IMG/VR virus record: IMGVR_UViG_3300035698_012408 | DNA length: 64,000 nucleotides | From: a virus | Strand: one strand, 5' to 3' | In this document: one piece after another, positions 1-64,000 of the stretch | Layout: each line of letters opens with the position of its first letter | Position numbering within the stretch: the first letter of the stretch is position 1 | The notes under the pieces: generated by a model | Databases searched by the model: none | Told to the model about the DNA's origin: nothing | What the model saw: only the letters and a program-made list of their open reading frames with translations | Position numbers and translations under genes: made by a program

Positions 1-1216
1 TCAACGCCCACCTGTAGTTAGACTCGTTCATGCCGTTGGCCTGCATGAAACGCTCACAAAGAATACCCGCGTAGTCAATGTAGACAGACCTGATAGGCTG
101 CTTCCGCTGTTCGCTCACGCGAGCAACTACAGATACCAGTTCGTCGACACCGCCGCTGCCGCAATTGGGGAAATCCTCTGAACCAGATAGATCGACGATC
201 TCCATGCTTCCGCCAAGCCACTCTCGACCCATCTCGTAACGATCACGTTCCGATAGGATCAATTCCTGGCCAGATTGCATCACGCGTTCATACTCCGCGA
301 TGTTATCTTGCGTGGTCAACTGACTCCAGTCACTCATGCACTCCAGCTTGGTGCGGGGGATTTGTAAAGCGGCTGACCAGATGCGCGGCCGGACCTTGCG
401 AGCTGACTCTTCTGCGGTCACGAATATCACGACGCCTCGCTCACGACCGCTGGCCTCTGCGTCATTCCATTCCTGCTTGGCAGACATCACTGCCATGCCA
501 ATACCAAGCGTCGTCTTACCGCCGCCGGTCGGGCCTAGCAGCCCATTAGCGTCACCAACGCGGTCACCGCCCAGCAGATTGTCCAAGAAACTGACACCCG
601 TGAGTCTAAACTCGTGGGGTACAAGCAGTTCCGTGCCAATCTCTGGCATTACCGGCAACACTGGGAGTTCGTTAATTGAGCTGGCACGATCAACTTGTAC
701 GTTCATCTGTGTCAGGAACTCACCAATATCGCTAGGGATACCAGCGGGCTGATTCACCACGCGCCGAAGTGGCGCTACAATCGTTCGTTCGTAAACAAAG
801 CGTTGGAGCACCTGCCGACCGAGAGAGATGTTTCCATCATTCATCTCAGCAGATGGTTCCGCCACGCTGTCCAACATCCCGCCATCGCCAAAAATAGCTC
901 TCTGCTGCTCTGGGCCGAGCACCAAGTTCGGGTTACCACGCATTTGTTCGTGATACGAGAACTTCAAATTCTCCGGCGTAACCTGCCCGTGATGCAAAAT
1001 CACGTCACATATAGCCAGATAAAGAATGCGAAGAGGCTCTTCATTAGGAAGAAAATGATGCGATCCGATTAAACGAGACGCATCATCAAAAAGTTGGCGA
1101 TCCGCGGCCAAGCATATCATCAACCACTCTACCGCTTGCGGTTCGAGTGGAAGCTGTGTTGGCTGCGGGCGTTGAGCTGTAAGCGCAGGGTCAAGGGATT
1201 CTCCTTGGAGCGACAT
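1..1216 (-). CDS. DnaB-like replicative helicase / RecA-fold P-loop ATPase, partial (C-terminus lies beyond the left window edge)
   Basis: Not in the ORF track because it is open at the window edge. Manual translation from ATG 1216..1214 (MSLQGESLDPALTAQ...) stays open to position 2. A ~200-aa N-terminal domain is followed by Walker A GLLGPTGGGKTTLG. The + ORFs 336..752, 695..1072 and 1094..1291 are antisense shadows of it. Confidence 0.6.
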   Translation of the reverse strand, partial: MSLQGESLDPALTAQRPQPTQLPLEPQAVEWLMICLAADRQLFDDASRLIGSHHFLPNEEPLRILYLAICDVILHHGQVTPENLKFSYHEQMRGNPNLVLGPEQQRAIFGDGGMLDSVAEPSAEMNDGNISLGRQVLQRFVYERTIVAPLRRVVNQPAGIPSDIGEFLTQMNVQVDRASSINELPVLPVMPEIGTELLVPHEFRLTGVSFLDNLLGGDRVGDANGLLGPTGGGKTTLGIGMAVMSAKQEWNDAEASGRERGVVIFVTAEESARKVRPRIWSAALQIPRTKLECMSDWSQLTTQDNIAEYERVMQSGQELILSERDRYEMGREWLGGSMEIVDLSGSEDFPNCGSGGVDELVSVVARVSEQRKQPIRSVYIDYAGILCERFMQANGMNESNYRWAL

Positions 1217-9798: not shown

Positions 9799-9815
9799 TT
9801 GGTTTCTAAGTACCG
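9799..9815. repeat. 17-bp exact repeat TTGGTTTCTAAGTACCG, copy 1 (leader of the Mre11-like gene)
   Basis: Identical 17-mer at 25663..25679. Both copies sit in the 5' leader of a minus-strand gene. Confidence 0.8.
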
Positions 9816-24497: not shown

Positions 24498-25639
24498 TCG
24501 TCTTCATCTCCATAATTGAGATCAATAGCGCGTAGATTCCGGCCACCATGCTGCGGCGGCGGAACAGGAGGACGCTCAATGGTATCACCCCAAAGGGCTA
24601 AACCGTGAGCGCCGAGTCGCCGCCGAAAGCCGGCAAGCGTGACCGGGCCAATATCTGGACAACCCAAGAAATCCGAAGCCGTGAACAGCAAGACGTCACG
24701 AACAGAACGAGGCGACTGAGTTTTTCCAAGACCAAGCCGCCGCATGGCATCAGCCACGCGGGCCGGTATCTTGTCACCGTAAAGGTTCGTCCACGGCTGA
24801 CTCAAGATCGTTGCATCCTCGATACCGAGGCGGTCTTCGGGATCTTCCCCGAGGAACTCAAGCTGCGCGACCTCCAGGTCACTATGGGTCACCCGCTGGT
24901 GGAAGGCCACGGCCACATCATGCACCGCGTCAATTACCGTCTCGTGTGAGGCACCGGGTTGCAACAACAGCCTGTCGTAACCACCCGAGGCGATTACCTC
25001 CGTCACCAGCGCCCGGTAGGTTTGCGAATTGTCAATATACTGATCCCGCCACGCGATGGCGTCCAGCATCGCCTGCACCCACGACGCCTTATCCGTGACA
25101 TAGCGGACGGTCCAACCGTGGTCATTCAACCGTTGGTGGTTATAAGCAAATGCCCGCCGCTTCAGCACACCCTCGGCGACAATTCGCACGTTAAGCCAAC
25201 CGCGTCGCGTGTCGCGAGTTTGATAGATATTGGCATGCGACTGCGCAAGCGAGGCATCCGTAACATCCGCACCGTCCGGGACCGCCGGGAGATCCGTCAC
25301 GAGCAACCCAAAGCGGGAAGCAACCGCCAACCGCGACTCTTGCCGCCCGGTCGCACGACCTTCCGTAAGACCCTGAAGCAGCCCAGCATCGAAGCCCGCG
25401 GCGTGCCCCTTATCATGACCCTTCTCGACGATCTCCTCGATCGACTGCTCCGCCTGCCACTTCATCTGTCTGACCTCTTCACCAGCCACCTCGACCAGAG
25501 AATAAGCCTGGCGCGCTGCGTCATCTATCGCTCGCGTCCGCAGCTGTTTGGACTTCTTCCAACCGCTCCGATAACCGGCCAAATAACCGATCGGATGGAT
25601 GACCGCCTCGTGGAGCCATCTCACAAATCTTCCAAGCAT
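24494..25639 (-). CDS. hypothetical protein; C-terminal region looks helix-hairpin-helix-like
   Basis: ATG 25639 has SD AGGAGG 5 nt upstream. RVADAMRRLGLGKTQSPRSVRDVLLFTASDFLGCPDIGPVTLAGFRRRL resembles RpoA alpha-CTD/HhH segments (from memory, weak). C-terminus is GRNLRAIDLNYGDEDE. Confidence 0.55.
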   Translation of the reverse strand: MLGRFVRWLHEAVIHPIGYLAGYRSGWKKSKQLRTRAIDDAARQAYSLVEVAGEEVRQMKWQAEQSIEEIVEKGHDKGHAAGFDAGLLQGLTEGRATGRQESRLAVASRFGLLVTDLPAVPDGADVTDASLAQSHANIYQTRDTRRGWLNVRIVAEGVLKRRAFAYNHQRLNDHGWTVRYVTDKASWVQAMLDAIAWRDQYIDNSQTYRALVTEVIASGGYDRLLLQPGASHETVIDAVHDVAVAFHQRVTHSDLEVAQLEFLGEDPEDRLGIEDATILSQPWTNLYGDKIPARVADAMRRLGLGKTQSPRSVRDVLLFTASDFLGCPDIGPVTLAGFRRRLGAHGLALWGDTIERPPVPPPQHGGRNLRAIDLNYGDEDE

Positions 25640-25662
25640 ATTCACCTCCTGTGAGTGACTAA

Positions 25663-25679
25663 TTGGTTTCTAAGTACCG
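25663..25679. repeat. 17-bp exact repeat TTGGTTTCTAAGTACCG, copy 2 (leader of 24494..25639)
   Basis: Identical to 9799..9815. Confidence 0.8.
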
Positions 25680-25713
25680 AAAACCCGTAATCCTAGTGGG
25701 TATCAAATACGCT

Positions 25714-25773
25714 GCTGTGAAACGTCTCACAGCGTTACGTGTGTGTTTACCTCGCTGTGAGACGTTTCACAGC
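25714..25773. promoter_or_regulatory. pair of perfect CRP/FNR-family-type operators (TGTGA-N6-TCACA), forming a 21-bp perfect inverted repeat
   Basis: GCTGTGAAACGTCTCACAGCG at 25714..25734 and its exact reverse complement at 25753..25773. Site centres are 40 bp apart. Located upstream of minus-strand gene 24494..25639. Confidence 0.5.
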
Positions 25774-26079
25774 AAAAGCAGGTCAAAGACATCCTCGCCT
25801 GCCAAAATGGCAAAAACCACCCTTAATGGGTACGAAAAACACCGAAAATATGTTAAGCTGGGTAGTTCAGAGACATAACTTTTCGAGATTCTCGTTGTAA
25901 CTCCTCGCTGTCAAGGGTGTTATGATTTTAGGCTACAGGTTAAAGGGACATGTTCGTTTAACCTATTAACATATCTAAAGATATGTAGTCTCTTACGAGG
26001 AGGGCCGCCCTGACGGACGTCCGCCTCGAAGAGTGACGGTACGAGGAGAGGAAAACTGAGCCGCGGCGTGTACCCTCAT

Positions 26080-26349
26080 TTATAGTGTAGGCACGCCACC
26101 CGAGGCCGGTTCGACCTCGTCTTCGTCGTCATCTTCTTCGATGTCGTCGATGTCGTCAACCGAGATCACGGGCGGGTTGAAATACACGTTGACGTACTGC
26201 GCGTCGTCCGAGGGTACCACCGGGACATGCTCTGGCAGCAGCGCTTGGAATTGTGCTACCGCCTCTTCGGGCGAATCGGCGGTTACTTCGCCGCCGAGAC
26301 CAACCGGTCCTTTACTGCTGTCGCCAAGACTGAAATGATATTTGGGCAT
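26080..26349 (-). CDS. small acidic protein, paralog of 26377..26619
   Basis: Shares VTADSPEEAVAQ with VTADTPEDAAAA in the neighbour, and shares the leader CCCAGTGTGAC(A/C)GAAAGGAAA. C-terminal tail DDIDDIEEDDDEDEVE. Confidence 0.6.
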   Translation of the reverse strand: MPKYHFSLGDSSKGPVGLGGEVTADSPEEAVAQFQALLPEHVPVVPSDDAQYVNVYFNPPVISVDDIDDIEEDDDEDEVEPASGGVPTL

Positions 26350-26376
26350 TTGGATTTCCTTTCTGTCACACTGGGC

Positions 26377-26619
26377 TTACTCTTGGCCCTGTGTCTGCGC
26401 TGTTGGTTTCATTTTCGTAAGTCCTTTTTCGCTGAACAGCACCGTGACAGCGTCCACGGGGCCTTCCGGCGAGTCAATGCGGACCTCGACGACGAATGAC
26501 GCCCCAAGCGCTCGGATCGCCGCAGCGGCGTCCTCAGGCGTGTCAGCCGTGACACTCACAGCGACGGTCGCGCTGGTTTCCTTGTGGCTTCCGGTAGCCT
26601 CAAATTTGTAATCTGTCAT
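26377..26619 (-). CDS. small protein, paralog of 26080..26349
   Basis: ATG 26619 (MTDYKFEATG...) with SD AAGGAAAA. The track start 26637 is a GTG inside the repeat leader. Confidence 0.6.
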   Translation of the reverse strand: MTDYKFEATGSHKETSATVAVSVTADTPEDAAAAIRALGASFVVEVRIDSPEGPVDAVTVLFSEKGLTKMKPTAQTQGQE

Positions 26620-26637
26620 GATTTTCCTTTCGGTCAC

Positions 26638-26705
26638 ACTGGGAGTTGACTGGGAGTTGACTGGGGGTTCGTTTTGGTAAGAAAAACTGCGTACGGATTT
26701 CCACC
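26638..26705. repeat. repeat locus 1: three tandem 11-mers (ACTGGGAGTTG x2, ACTGGGGGTTC) plus module B (AAACTGCGTACGGATTTCCACC)
   Basis: 11-mers at 26638..26670 and module B at 26684..26705. The same modules recur at 27481..27530 and 27695..27749. Confidence 0.85.
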
Positions 26706-26738
26706 CGTGCTTTGCCCCGATTGGGGTAAGTGGGCCGG

Positions 26739-27017
26739 CTAGGCCTCCAGGTATTCAAGCGCTTGGCGCCGCGCGTCTGCGAGCTCCTTCCGCTCTCGCA
26801 GCAGGCCGCGAAGCATGTTGACTTCCCGGAAGGCATCACGCAGCGAGTGATTCTCTGGCAGCGCCTCGATCTCCGAGGCGAGCTTATCCAGCTCGTCCAT
26901 CCGGTACTTGGTACACATCAGGTGGTTACGCAGGGAGTTCCGATCGCCCCAGCCGTCCCCGGTATCCTGGATGCAACACTTTACGCGTGTTCGCATTTCT
27001 TCGATTTGTGGCGTCAT
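26739..27017 (-). CDS. hypothetical coiled-coil protein
   Basis: 92 aa with SD AAGGAGG 7 nt upstream of ATG 27017. Confidence 0.6.
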   Translation of the reverse strand: MTPQIEEMRTRVKCCIQDTGDGWGDRNSLRNHLMCTKYRMDELDKLASEIEALPENHSLRDAFREVNMLRGLLRERKELADARRQALEYLEA

Positions 27018-27047
27018 ATGTCGCCTCCTTTCGTTTTGTGATTATAG

Positions 27048-27170
27048 TGGACCCGACGGGGCTCGAACCCGCACGGCAGTTGCGCCTCATCCGCTGCTAG
27101 GGAAAAATAACCCTGCCCGCGGTAGTGGCTCACCTCGCATTACCGGCTCTGCCAGTTAAGCTACGGGCCC
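27048..27170 (-). tRNA. tRNA-like element, non-canonical length (123 nt): canonical acceptor, D and T arms with ~70 nt in between
   Basis: Minus strand reads GGGCCCG-TA-GCTTAACTGGCAGAGC...GCGGGTTCGAGCCCCGT-CGGGTCC-A. There is a 7-bp acceptor stem (one G-U) and a GTTCGAG T-loop. No canonical 7-nt anticodon loop could be placed by eye. CCA is not encoded. Confidence 0.45.
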
Positions 27171-27345
27171 GTTTCGCAAGTGCTTTGCGTATCTTCGTGA
27201 CGTTCGCGGCTGTAAACAACCGCCGGCCAAACATCTGGTAAGTGGCCCCAGGAATGACCTTTCGCCGAATTAGGTAATTCAGCTTCCATCGTGGGATACC
27301 AAAAATCTCAGCCACTTCGCGGCTCTGGTAGAGTCGTGCCGTCAT
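27130..27345 (-). CDS. excisionase/MerR-type helix-turn-helix DNA-binding protein
   Basis: ATG 27345 with SD GGAG 6 nt upstream; the track start 27357 is TTG. LYQSREVAEIFGIPRWKLNYLIRRKVIPGATYQMFGRRLFT fits the Xis-family HTH pattern. The last ~13 codons overlap the 5' half of the tRNA-like element. Confidence 0.65.
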   Translation of the reverse strand: MTARLYQSREVAEIFGIPRWKLNYLIRRKVIPGATYQMFGRRLFTAANVTKIRKALAKRARSLTGRAGNAR

Positions 27346-27480
27346 CTTTTTCTCCAAAATAAAGGATTTTGTTGCGGCGGTAATTGATGTTTACCGCTCA
27401 ACCTTTAAGGGAAAAGCAACGAAGCTCGCTCTAACGCGTTGGTGTTTAAGGTGTTACGACGTCCCCGGTTTCTTTCAGAC

Positions 27481-27530
27481 AAATCGTCCGGTTTTCCCAG
27501 GGTAGGCGAAACTGCGTACGGATTTCCACC
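27481..27530. repeat. repeat locus 2: module C (AAATCGTCCGGTTTTCCCAGGG) plus module B
   Basis: C at 27481..27502 and B at 27509..27530. B is identical to 26684..26705. Confidence 0.85.
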
Positions 27531-27694
27531 TGAGTGGTCTTTTTGGTACGCTCGTTGAAACATTTGCTCGCCCGCGTAAGATGTCATAGTGTTATACGAA
27601 ACATTTCACGAAACTGTAACTGCTTTACCTGTAACAGGTTAGCGGGAAACAGGGCAGCCAACGGGCGTACCAGCCTACCCACGCTGAGGGGTAG

Positions 27695-27749
27695 ACTGGG
27701 AGTTGACTGGGAGTTGACTGGGAGTTCAAATCGTCCGGTTTTCCCAGGG
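27695..27749. repeat. repeat locus 3: three tandem 11-mers (ACTGGGAGTTG x2, ACTGGGAGTTC) plus module C
   Basis: 11-mers at 27695..27727 and C at 27728..27749, identical to 27481..27502. Confidence 0.85.
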
Positions 27750-27754
27750 ATGGT

Positions 27755-28318
27755 TTATCCGCCGCCGTCCAGATCGATCACTCGCGGCTGCCGTCCAACC
27801 TCCCGCACGGGTCGGGATACCACGCCGGCAATTTCCACACGCGGTAGGCCGAGTATGTTTGCGAACTGCTCCGCGTTCTGCTCGGCGTCCGCACCGGCCT
27901 GCCGCATCAGGCGACGCCGCGAGGCCGCCTGTAACGCGTCGGGGCTCTCCGCCCGCGAGGCCGCAAACACCGCCACCCACGACGTCGGGGGGTTAGGTAA
28001 TTCAATGACTTCCATCGTGTCAATATCGAAAGGTTCGCCGGCGTTGCCGAGGAAGGAGCACGTAGGCTCGCCTTCGTCGTCCTTGTAGTCTTCGAGGTCC
28101 TGCTCTGACACCAAGTACCTGTCGAGCTTGTCGGCGTCTACAGCGGCATCTAGGGCCTCCTGGAGCGAACTCCCAAAAACCACACAAACGGGGGAGCCGT
28201 GGTCGTGTAACAGCCACGGCCGGACGTTGTGAGGGTTCGACTCGTTGGACGGAATCCAATCGTCGAGCTCCGCAACGTCCTCGTCACTGAACGTGATCAT
28301 GCCGTAGGTGAACTCCAT
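27755..28318 (-). CDS. hypothetical acidic protein
   Basis: 187 aa. C-terminus is GRQPRVIDLDGGG (recurrent motif). Confidence 0.6.
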   Translation of the reverse strand: MEFTYGMITFSDEDVAELDDWIPSNESNPHNVRPWLLHDHGSPVCVVFGSSLQEALDAAVDADKLDRYLVSEQDLEDYKDDEGEPTCSFLGNAGEPFDIDTMEVIELPNPPTSWVAVFAASRAESPDALQAASRRRLMRQAGADAEQNAEQFANILGLPRVEIAGVVSRPVREVGRQPRVIDLDGGG

Positions 28319-31791: not shown

Positions 31792-32198
31792 TATTCTGTA
31801 CGCGTGAAGGTAAAACAGTCCGCACCCTTGATACGGTTGCCGACGAAGGTTCGACCATTACGCCGGAACGTGATTCGGCGACCGGCGACCGTGACGTCCT
31901 CGCTGACAGTCAGACCGGTCCACGTCCGCACTATCTGCATTTTTCCCATATTCTTCAGGTAGAACATACCCTCTTGGCCGATCTCGCAGCGGTCGTCCAG
32001 CCCGGCGATCAACGCTTCGTCCAACAGTTTGTTGTGGATCTTGGCGTTCTCTTCCGAGACGTCGACTTTGCCGAGATTTGGTTCGTAAGTACCACGCTCC
32101 TTGAACACCATCAGGTGTCCGAGGAGCTGATCATCAGCGGTCGTGATCAGTGAGCCCACATGCTTGAGTTCAGTCGTCATCAGTTCATTCTCCTTCAT
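31791..32198 (-). CDS. hypothetical protein
   Basis: 135-aa ORF. Confidence 0.55.
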   Translation of the reverse strand: MKENELMTTELKHVGSLITTADDQLLGHLMVFKERGTYEPNLGKVDVSEENAKIHNKLLDEALIAGLDDRCEIGQEGMFYLKNMGKMQIVRTWTGLTVSEDVTVAGRRITFRRNGRTFVGNRIKGADCFTFTRTE

Positions 32199-35270: not shown

Positions 35271-35539
35271 CAGCTTTCGTCCGCGTTTTCGTCCGCGGCT
35301 TCGCCCTCGGCCGACTCCGTACCAAGATCAAAAGTCCGATCCTCTTCGTCGTCATCGGATGAACCTTCATCCGGGGATGGTGGTGACAGGTCTTCCGCCA
35401 CGCTGTCCCAGAAATTTTTGATCCGATCGGCAACCGACCCGTCGAGGATCTGTTCCTCTCCGCTGTGATAGCAGATGCGGATACTCACGTCGCCCGCGTT
35501 CTCCGGTTCCGCGTCAGCGATATACGCTATCGAGAACAT
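35270..35539 (-). CDS. small protein with strongly acidic C-terminal tail
   Basis: ATG 35539 lies 1 nt after the RNase H stop. Tail is SSDDDEEDRTFDLGTESAEGEAADENADES. Confidence 0.45.
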   Translation of the reverse strand: MFSIAYIADAEPENAGDVSIRICYHSGEEQILDGSVADRIKNFWDSVAEDLSPPSPDEGSSDDDEEDRTFDLGTESAEGEAADENADES

Positions 35540-35540
35540 G

Positions 35541-36278
35541 TTAATTCGGATGCTGCTGGCCGGTATCGTTATGAATGGCATTGTTGACATTTTCCGTGTG
35601 CTCCTCTGATGGATTGATGTGATAGATGTCGATCGCCTCACCCGTCTCCGGGTCAGCAAATCGAATCTGGGCAACGGCCTCCAAGGCTCGCTGCGTGATG
35701 CCTTCCGGGAAGTCAACGTGCTTCGCGGCCTGCTGGAGCTCCCGCCGGGCCATGCCGGCGATCAGATCCGCAGTCCAGTTAAGCTGTGACGTCGAGCGGT
35801 TGGCCCAATGAAAGTGGCAGTGGTAGCCGAGCCGCCGAAACTCTCGCATGGCGGACCAGTACGCAATGTTAGCCCGTGGCAGCTCGCCACTAGGCATCAT
35901 TGCTTTCGTGCCCCAGCGGGCGACGGTCTGGCTGTCCGTGATAATATGGACGTTGATCAGCCCACGAGTACGCAGACGCTCACGGCCATATTTTGCGTCA
36001 AACCAAGACAGGGCCTGAAGATACGGCATCGACTCCGCGGAGTTGATTGAGCCGAGATTCATCGCGCCCCACACGATCTTGCGGAAGCGGGTCTGGCTGT
36101 CTATGAGCACACCAGACCAGCCGCAAGCAGTGTTCCAGCCTGCGCCGCTGCCATCGCCTACAATGAGCAAATCCCACTTGGGTGAGCCGATACGCTCAAG
36201 AACCGCCTGGAGTAGCTCCACCTCCGGGACTCGGTGTTTGTCCGGCTTCGAGCGACTGGAGTTCCTGCTTTTTGCCAT
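35541..36278 (-). CDS. RNase H-fold nuclease (RNase HI-like)
   Basis: From ATG 36278: LIVGDGSG (Asp 1), SAESMPYL (Glu), IITDSQ (Asp), WTADLIAG (Asp), in RNase HI order. Confidence 0.65.
   Translation of the reverse strand: MAKSRNSSRSKPDKHRVPEVELLQAVLERIGSPKWDLLIVGDGSGAGWNTACGWSGVLIDSQTRFRKIVWGAMNLGSINSAESMPYLQALSWFDAKYGRERLRTRGLINVHIITDSQTVARWGTKAMMPSGELPRANIAYWSAMREFRRLGYHCHFHWANRSTSQLNWTADLIAGMARRELQQAAKHVDFPEGITQRALEAVAQIRFADPETGEAIDIYHINPSEEHTENVNNAIHNDTGQQHPN

Positions 36279-62793: not shown

Positions 62794-64000
<1,207 letters not shown>

Follow-up and report, generated by a model that had tools for sequence, protein, structure and literature searches.

What do three short sequence modules do when they recur, in different combinations, at three places within 1.1 kb of a phage genome? 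The question is raised by positions 26638-27749 of a 64,000-nucleotide stretch (the window) of IMG/VR virus record IMGVR_UViG_3300035698_012408, part of a contig of ~215 kb and 56% G+C from an uncultured phage. Here an initial annotation had described a tandem 11-mer array (module A) and two further elements (B and C), paired as A-B, C-B and A-C at loci 1, 2 and 3 (L1, L2 and L3), and had suggested for them iterons or an origin, operator arrays for an adjacent helix-turn-helix (HTH) protein, or a phage-specific promoter or leader family. As the minus strand carries nearly all genes of the window, the modules are properly read as their reverse complements, A', B' and C'. Read in this way, and judged from sequence alignment, L1, L2 and L3 are paralogues, each a different truncation of one ~100-nt upstream cassette that shares the orientation of the genes, and the A' triplets within it may be operator arrays. 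The sequence examined comprised the window and 9.7 kb past its left end, ~74 kb of the ~215 kb.

One composite cassette in three partial copies

A MAFFT alignment of the minus strand resolves L1, L2 and L3 as partial copies of a single order, B'-linker-C'-A'x3-leader, in which B' (22 nt) is followed by a linker of 6-7 nt, C' (22 nt), three 11-bp A' units and a leader with a Shine-Dalgarno (SD) sequence. The parts are as follows.

26355-26375, minus strand: what is left of the last A' unit, with the leader, CCCAGTGTGACAGAAAGGAAA, before the 89-aa gene
26620-26637, minus strand: leader with SD sequence (GTGACCGAAAGGAAAATC), from the L1 array to the ATG of the 80-aa gene
26638-26670, minus strand: L1 array, three 11-bp direct repeats GAACCCCCAGT CAACTCCCAGT CAACTCCCAGT
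26671-26683, minus strand: L1 spacer TTCTTACCAAAAC, which aligns as linker plus C' remnant minus ~15 nt
26684-26705, minus strand: L1 copy of B' (GGTGGAAATCCGTACGCAGTTT)
27130-27345, minus strand: gene for a 71-aa MerR/HTH_17-like winged-helix protein, the candidate A' binder, between the arrays
27480-27502, minus strand: L2 copy of C' (CCCTGGGAAAACCGGACGATTTG), with leader-like GTCTGAAAGAAAC next to it
27503-27508, minus strand: L2 linker CGCCTA between B' and C'
27509-27530, minus strand: L2 copy of B'
27670-27699, minus strand: hairpin with an 11-bp stem, CCAGUCUACCC...GGGUAGGCUGG, overlapping the last A' unit of L3
27695-27727, minus strand: L3 array, three 11-bp direct repeats GAACTCCCAGT CAACTCCCAGT CAACTCCCAGT
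27728-27749, minus strand: L3 copy of C', starting 5 nt past the stop codon of the 187-aa gene
658-673, minus strand: solitary A' unit with both L1 flanks, AACGAACTCCCAGTGT, inside a helicase-like open reading frame (ORF)

Each locus has lost a different part of this order. L1 consists of B', TTCTTAC, a 15-nt gap in place of C', the A' triplet and GTGTGACCGAAAGGAAAATCATG / GTGTGACCGAAAGGAAAATC-ATG; L2 consists of B', CGCCTAC, C' and GTCTGAAAGAAAC, without A'; and L3 is C' followed by the A' triplet, without B' or leader. Upstream of the 89-aa paralogue, only CCCAGTGTGACAGAAAGGAAA is retained. The modules that had been described as shuffled are real and in place, whereas free shuffling gives way in the alignment to differential deletion of one composite, and the loci behave as copies of a local upstream leader cassette.

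The annotated positions of the A arrays in L1 and L3 were recovered by exact matching: the unit ACTGGGAGTTG is exact at 26638, 26649, 27695 and 27706, with variants as third units (ACTGGGGGTTC at 26660, ACTGGGAGTTC at 27717), and Tandem Repeats Finder reports a period of 11 with 2.9 and 3.0 copies. The 5'-most unit of both arrays has GAAC and the remaining units have CAAC. The SD leader fills the 18 nt that separate the L1 array from the start codon (ATG) of the 80-aa gene, and locus 1 does adjoin the ribosome-binding site of 26377-26619, as had been noted; the L3 array lies 349 nt upstream of the HTH ATG, and no U-tract follows the hairpin that overlaps it. The extra 11-mer reported near 660 in the helicase gene is likewise present, as one unit with both L1 flanks within the coding ORF. 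Shuffled sequences give 0.1 matches of the AACGAACTCCCAGTGT type at up to 2 mismatches and lone A 11-mers, again at up to 2 mismatches, occur at chance level (20 seen vs 15 expected); the solitary unit at 658-673 may be coincidental.

The copies of B and of C stand where they had been placed and are identical, as claimed. Even when 3 mismatches are allowed, neither B nor C has a third copy in the window (shuffles give 0 for B and 0.01 for C). The two B copies remain similar over 30 nt (90% identity). The exact copies of C, at 27481-27502 and 27728-27749, reach 23 nt with a leading C, and the L2 copy ends 134 nt before the HTH ATG. The reported relationship of B to C also holds, in the form of a common 13-nt minus-strand core, GGAAAWCCGKACG, with 11/13 positions matching, for which we infer p ~0.002 for two 22-mers over all offsets. 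Further convincing copies of this core, at up to 2 mismatches, were not found in the window, and its occurrences total four in the ~74 kb; the rest of the window, like the 9.7 kb past its left end, has neither A arrays nor B or C. The idea of a genome-wide, phage-specific promoter or leader family is left unsupported by this confinement of B, C and the core to a 1.1-kb region of the 64 kb plus 9.7 kb, a confinement that fits a local set of operators better than a genome-wide signal.

A predicted small winged-helix protein between the arrays

The 71-aa protein is, in its predicted fold class, a small MerR/Xis-like winged helix. Against Pfam it scores 20 bits with HTH_17 and 16.9 bits with MerR_1, and its weak matches in PHROGs are to MerR-like regulator and excisionase families. 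The AlphaFold2 model (predicted local distance difference test score, pLDDT, 74) is a beta-alpha-alpha-beta-beta-alpha winged helix, in which the winged HTH (wHTH) is accompanied by a single C-terminal helix of 22 residues, and the best Foldseek matches are the DNA-binding domains of NmlR, RacA, BldC, CarH and MtaN (probability 0.9-1.0, query TM-score (TMq) 0.55-0.71). A word-indexed search found no homologues, and an exhaustive HMMER search places the protein in a family of ~70 small proteins with a clear consensus. For the 92-aa protein encoded nearby homologues were not found, and searches of IMG/VR with it, with the HTH protein and with the profile of the HTH family yielded no relatives.

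Small winged-helix proteins that bind head to tail typically have sites of this design, three exact direct repeats spaced by one helical turn. Both arrays here comprise three direct repeats with an exact 11-bp period, as would be expected for a recombination-directionality factor (RDF) of the Xis-Apl-Cox type, and the 71-aa ORF encodes a small protein, modelled as a winged helix, close to the sites, as is also usual for such systems. We put at roughly 0.4 the probability that a small MerR/Xis-like protein, most simply the local 71-aa one (27130-27345), has the A' triplets as its operator arrays, a reading that draws on sequence, on a structural model and on analogy. A monomeric winged-helix protein of this kind would bind A' cooperatively and head to tail, with one protomer per helical turn. 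Through the L3 and L2 cassettes, upstream of the HTH's own gene, it would regulate itself, and through the L1 cassette, which adjoins the SD sequence of the 80-aa/89-aa pair, it would control both of those genes. B' and C' would then be variants of a second, non-palindromic site with the core GGAAAWCCGKACG, acting either as the core promoter of the cassette or as the site of a second factor. That the arrays are bound by a protein, that this protein is the one named, and the regulatory outcome are all points that we infer.

Operator arrays for the adjacent HTH protein are the best supported of the three functions first proposed, since the 11-bp phasing, the protein fold and the recurrence described below all point, indirectly, towards them. 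Helically phased direct-repeat operators for small winged-helix proteins are already well established and current concepts would be unchanged; the gain, if the reading is true, would be a defined protein-DNA pair for a ~70-member family of small uncharacterised MerR/Xis-like proteins and a first starting point for work on regulation in a large, uncultured lineage of phages.

Comparison with known direct-repeat binders

Apl and Cox are small HTH proteins with a dual role as recombination-directionality factors and regulators. As in coliphage 186 (Apl) and P2-like phages (Cox), the present locus has direct repeats 10-11 bp apart, a small protein encoded nearby and two sets of sites, and Apl of phage 186 itself has two separate site sets and requires three adjacent operators for binding (PMC7498355). 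The resemblance has its limits. In 186 one site set lies at attP beside the integrase, whereas Pfam scans of the ~74 kb here found no integrase or recombinase domain, and no attachment (att) site was found there either; the sites of Apl are 6 bp long and come in groups of 5 and 7, in contrast to exact 11-mers in sets of 3; and the arrays here belong to a larger cassette, itself duplicated, that also holds a second type of site (B/C).

MerR-like proteins offer a further comparison. BldC of Streptomyces, a 68-aa MerR-like protein, oligomerises head to tail on direct repeats (PMC5859096), and the lytic phage D29 encodes a MerR-like repressor, Gp36, that likewise binds such repeats head to tail (PMC12266134). 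Like them, the 71-aa protein is of ~70 aa and is modelled with a MerR-type wHTH and without a long coiled coil, although its identity to either is only ~20%, and BldC-DNA chains match its model at probability 0.94-0.96 and TMq ~0.56 with weak E-values of 0.16-0.4. The sites differ: the BldC repeat consensus is AT-rich (AATT-N4-C) and is not matched by the A unit, and the Gp36 repeats, AGGCGGCG, are separated by 13 nt and are unlike it. Three tandem 11-bp direct repeats are bound by the MerR-type DNA-binding domains of CarH (PMC9304148), whose chains have the top sequence identity among the MerR-family structural matches (24-27%). The A unit has T-N2-AC, as in the CarH repeat TnnACA, a match of 4 positions that is not significant, and CarH is a 280-aa B12 photoreceptor that binds as a tetramer, whereas the 71-aa protein has no such domain.

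Recurrence of the array in other genomes

GTDB genomes and JGI metagenomes were scanned with the A tandem 22-mer, which returned two kinds of match and not the phage itself. One is a Planctomycetaceae metagenome-assembled genome (L024, the same sequence as metagenome contig L015), in which 30 nt are identical to L3. Its array lies 4 nt past a stop codon; the gene 116 nt downstream of the array is of the HTH_17 type, with a score above the Pfam threshold (29.4 bits), and a tyrosine integrase comes next (E 2.7e-20). The orientation of the array relative to the HTH gene is that of the window. Because this array was found by DNA alone, its place upstream of the same kind of gene would be unlikely to arise by chance. 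Sequences like B and C beside it were suggestive by eye and were rejected, as their scores do not exceed the background elsewhere in the locus. Also rejected was a role of the A arrays as att or arm-type sites: the L024 array is ~1.8 kb from the integrase-distal end where att is expected, and the window arrays are 400-530 bp from the tRNA-like element, with genes intervening.

The other matches, 7/8 of those in GTDB, are from Bacteroidota, where tandem arrays of ACTGGGAGTTG in 2-6 copies occur between genes in Flavobacterium, Dysgonomonadaceae, Bacteroidales and Niastella (L011-L014, L016-L023, L025 and L026). Their copy number differs between orthologous loci and they adjoin unrelated housekeeping genes, with no common theme and no HTH_17 gene; they are probably unrelated variable tandem repeats. 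Among phages, blastn of the region against a GenBank collection gave no match, and exact 22-mers of B, C or AA were not found in IMG/VR.

A number of observations weigh against the operator reading and must be set beside those that suggest it. The Pfam matches of the 71-aa protein fall under the curated cut-offs and its structural matches are weak by E-value (7e-3 at best). It is dissimilar to the HTH_17 protein of L024 (BLASTP E 7.5), and as the recognition helices differ, a common specificity for one 11-mer is not expected of the two; given this dissimilarity, a third factor common to both genomes might be the one that reads the array. At the sole homologue locus with DNA (L033, 49% identity), no tandem repeats lie upstream of the gene. 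The Bacteroidota arrays, standing beside unrelated genes, indicate that the 11-mer motif alone is not diagnostic, and a search of the cassettes for sigma-70-type promoters came up empty on the gene strand. Finally, the phage is carried by samples JGI 3300005935 and 3300025736, SRR8526178, SRR5459189 and the runs behind ERZ27316125, and all its metagenomic copies (JGI, ENA, Logan) are 100% identical to the window, which makes a comparison of covariation and conservation impossible.

Competing explanations

The suggestion of iterons or an origin leads to a different account, in which the modules would be part of a bidirectional origin, with the A arrays, and perhaps B and C, as iteron-like sites for an initiator or architectural protein and AT-rich stretches as the unwinding element. 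A sharp third-codon skew switch at 25.7-27.5 kb lends that suggestion indirect support. Two-segment fits to the cumulative skew of the 64-kb window place breaks at 26,500 (GC) and 27,500 (AT), and the coding-strand skew of co-oriented genes at third codon positions (GC3/AT3) is +0.187/-0.233 on the left and -0.01/-0.10 on the right, with codon positions 1 and 2 unchanged; a shift so limited is a mutational rather than a protein-composition effect, and since small unknown genes and presumed structural (distal) genes of the right block have the same skew, an effect of transcription level is argued against. The sign of the skew would agree with forks diverging from the switch, the left block holds SbcCD-like proteins, helicases, PolA and a RecA-like protein, and AT-rich 50-mers lie at 25941-25995 (70% AT, the region's highest) and 27576-27625 (66% AT). 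Gene by gene, however, the switch is best placed between 25645 and 26080, a 434-nt gap with palindromes 0.6 kb left of L1. The cassettes are gene-oriented and welded to SD leaders, and two blocks of mosaic ancestry could also give a skew step. Typical iterons are of 17-22 bp, present in greater number, and bound by a recognisable initiator encoded nearby. Direct-repeat sets at two loci ~1 kb apart, adjacent replication genes and the skew switch recall the iteron origins lambda ori and P4 ori/crr; unlike these, the repeats here are of 11 bp and fused to SD leaders, and Pfam and PHROG scans of the region's proteins recognised no initiator-like gene nearby. A DnaA-box cluster was not found, and the L024 array is upstream of an xis-like/int pair, not of replication genes. 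Together the skew step and the AT-rich and palindromic features of the 434-nt gap make an origin a serious rival for the region and less of one for the modules, for which we consider it unlikely; the switch at ~25,600-27,500 is a candidate replication origin or mosaic junction.

It is also rather doubtful that the copies are recent scars of duplication or recombination with no function of their own, left for instance by the insertion or duplication, between direct repeats, of a ~1.06-kb segment that holds the 92-aa gene, the tRNA-like element and the HTH gene; the identity of the 22-33-mers would then reflect recency. Identity among the copies is 97-100%, each locus reproduces part of one composite, the enclosed 92-aa and HTH genes have no close relatives, and were the L1 and L3 arrays to recombine, a tidy order of 187-aa gene, C', A'x3, leader and 80-aa gene would remain; yet B and C keep their 11/13 core while the flanks differ, which suggests selection on the core, and the 11-bp unit recurs with exact 11-bp phasing in the unrelated Planctomycetaceae element, the arrays being equally placed in both genomes, right after a stop codon and upstream of an HTH gene. 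That the phage does rearrange at short repeats is seen in a 597-nt MEGAHIT k141 contig from another sample (L010), which links 35735 with 26847 through a 53-bp inverted repeat (a single mismatch and a single indel; 26795-26847 in the 92-aa gene, 35687-35738 antisense in an RNase H-like gene) and so fuses 35380-35735 (+) to 26847-26558 (-). The fusion is one of the junctions formed by inverting the 8.9-kb segment that the repeats bound; this segment contains L2, L3, the HTH gene and the tRNA-like element and leaves L1 outside. An exact-protein look-up found no reciprocal hybrid protein. Having both the skew switch and the edge of an inverting segment, the region is an obvious place to seek an origin and control centre. 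A combined account, in which 25.6-27.8 kb would be a bidirectional origin beside the inverting segment, A, B and C would organise the origin complex, and the 11-mer array common to a Planctomycetes-associated phage and an integrative element would be read by a common host or element factor, is distinctly unlikely. We regard as very unlikely, too, that the cassette is a promoter of a non-sigma-70 kind (B'/C' or the A' array) or a transcribed 5'-leader RNA that binds a regulator. Its copies are gene-oriented and directly 5' of SD sequences, pairing is possible between C' (CUGGGA) and A' (UCCCAG), and the final unit of L3 contributes to the 11-bp hairpin; but RNA folding on the gene strand (z = -2.1, 0.15, 0.57) is no better than shuffles and not significant on either strand, Rfam has no match on the modules, and the scarcity of the core given above speaks against a promoter signal. 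Reading the first A' unit GAAC, with GTC 16 nt later, as an extracytoplasmic function (ECF)-like promoter, or the GG-N10-GC spacing of B' as a sigma-54-like one, relies on partial resemblances spotted post hoc, and no sigma-factor gene was recognised in the genome parts examined; the sigma-54 reading of B' was rejected as weak, with 7/12 positions matching and no -12 GC in C'. A hairpin that had been pointed out at 27375-27395 is present, and RNA folding of that stretch again does no better than shuffles.

Gene order and further features of the genome

On the minus strand the order runs from the 187-aa gene through L3, ~160 nt that include the 66%-AT segment, L2 and the 71-aa HTH gene to the tRNA-like element, the 92-aa gene, L1, the 80-aa gene and its 89-aa paralogue, after which come the 434-nt gap and the block of recombination and replication genes named above.

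26080-26349, minus strand: 89-aa gene, paralogue of the 80-aa gene
26377-26619, minus strand: 80-aa gene
27755-28318, minus strand: 187-aa gene

The 80-aa and 89-aa genes lie in tandem and are paralogous (BLASTP E 2e-5, across the first 38 residues), with an upstream leader in common, and no family is recognisable for either. The tRNA-like element (27045-27170, minus strand) resembles a tRNA at its two ends, one acceptor/D-like and the other T-arm/acceptor-like, and not in the ~50 nt between them; its 5' part overlaps the HTH ORF by the last 12 codons of the latter. ARAGORN makes no call at this position, and the only Rfam match, to transfer-messenger RNA (tmRNA), is weak (12.9 bits, E 0.016).

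Within the 434-nt gap (25646-26079) are two copies of a 20-bp palindrome, GCTGTGAAACGTCTCACAGC, which form a perfect 22-nt inverted repeat (25713-25734 / 25753-25774) and resemble a classical operator pair. A 17-mer, TTGGTTTCTAAGTACCG, occurs at 9799-9815, 25663-25679 and 32078-32094 and, in L027, at 5766 (two copies exact, one at 82%, one with a single mismatch); at 25663, and apparently also at 9799, it lies directly 5' of a minus-strand start codon, and it may be a leader or promoter motif.

Synteny downstream with the window was not found in the IMG/VR relatives of the 187-aa gene (L005 and L006), in prophage L007 or in L008. One of these relatives (L005, 5893-9485) and the HTH homologue locus (L033, 721-775) carry a repeated intergenic signal that consists of a terminator-like hairpin, TTTTCATGCGC, then TGGCAA(TAAG), with at least five copies in the former and one in the latter, upstream of the HTH homologue; no copy was noted in the window. 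Towards the far end of the window, at 63200-63960, a minus-strand ORF with collagen-like triplets (GGN-NNN-NNN runs) probably encodes a fibre or structural protein.

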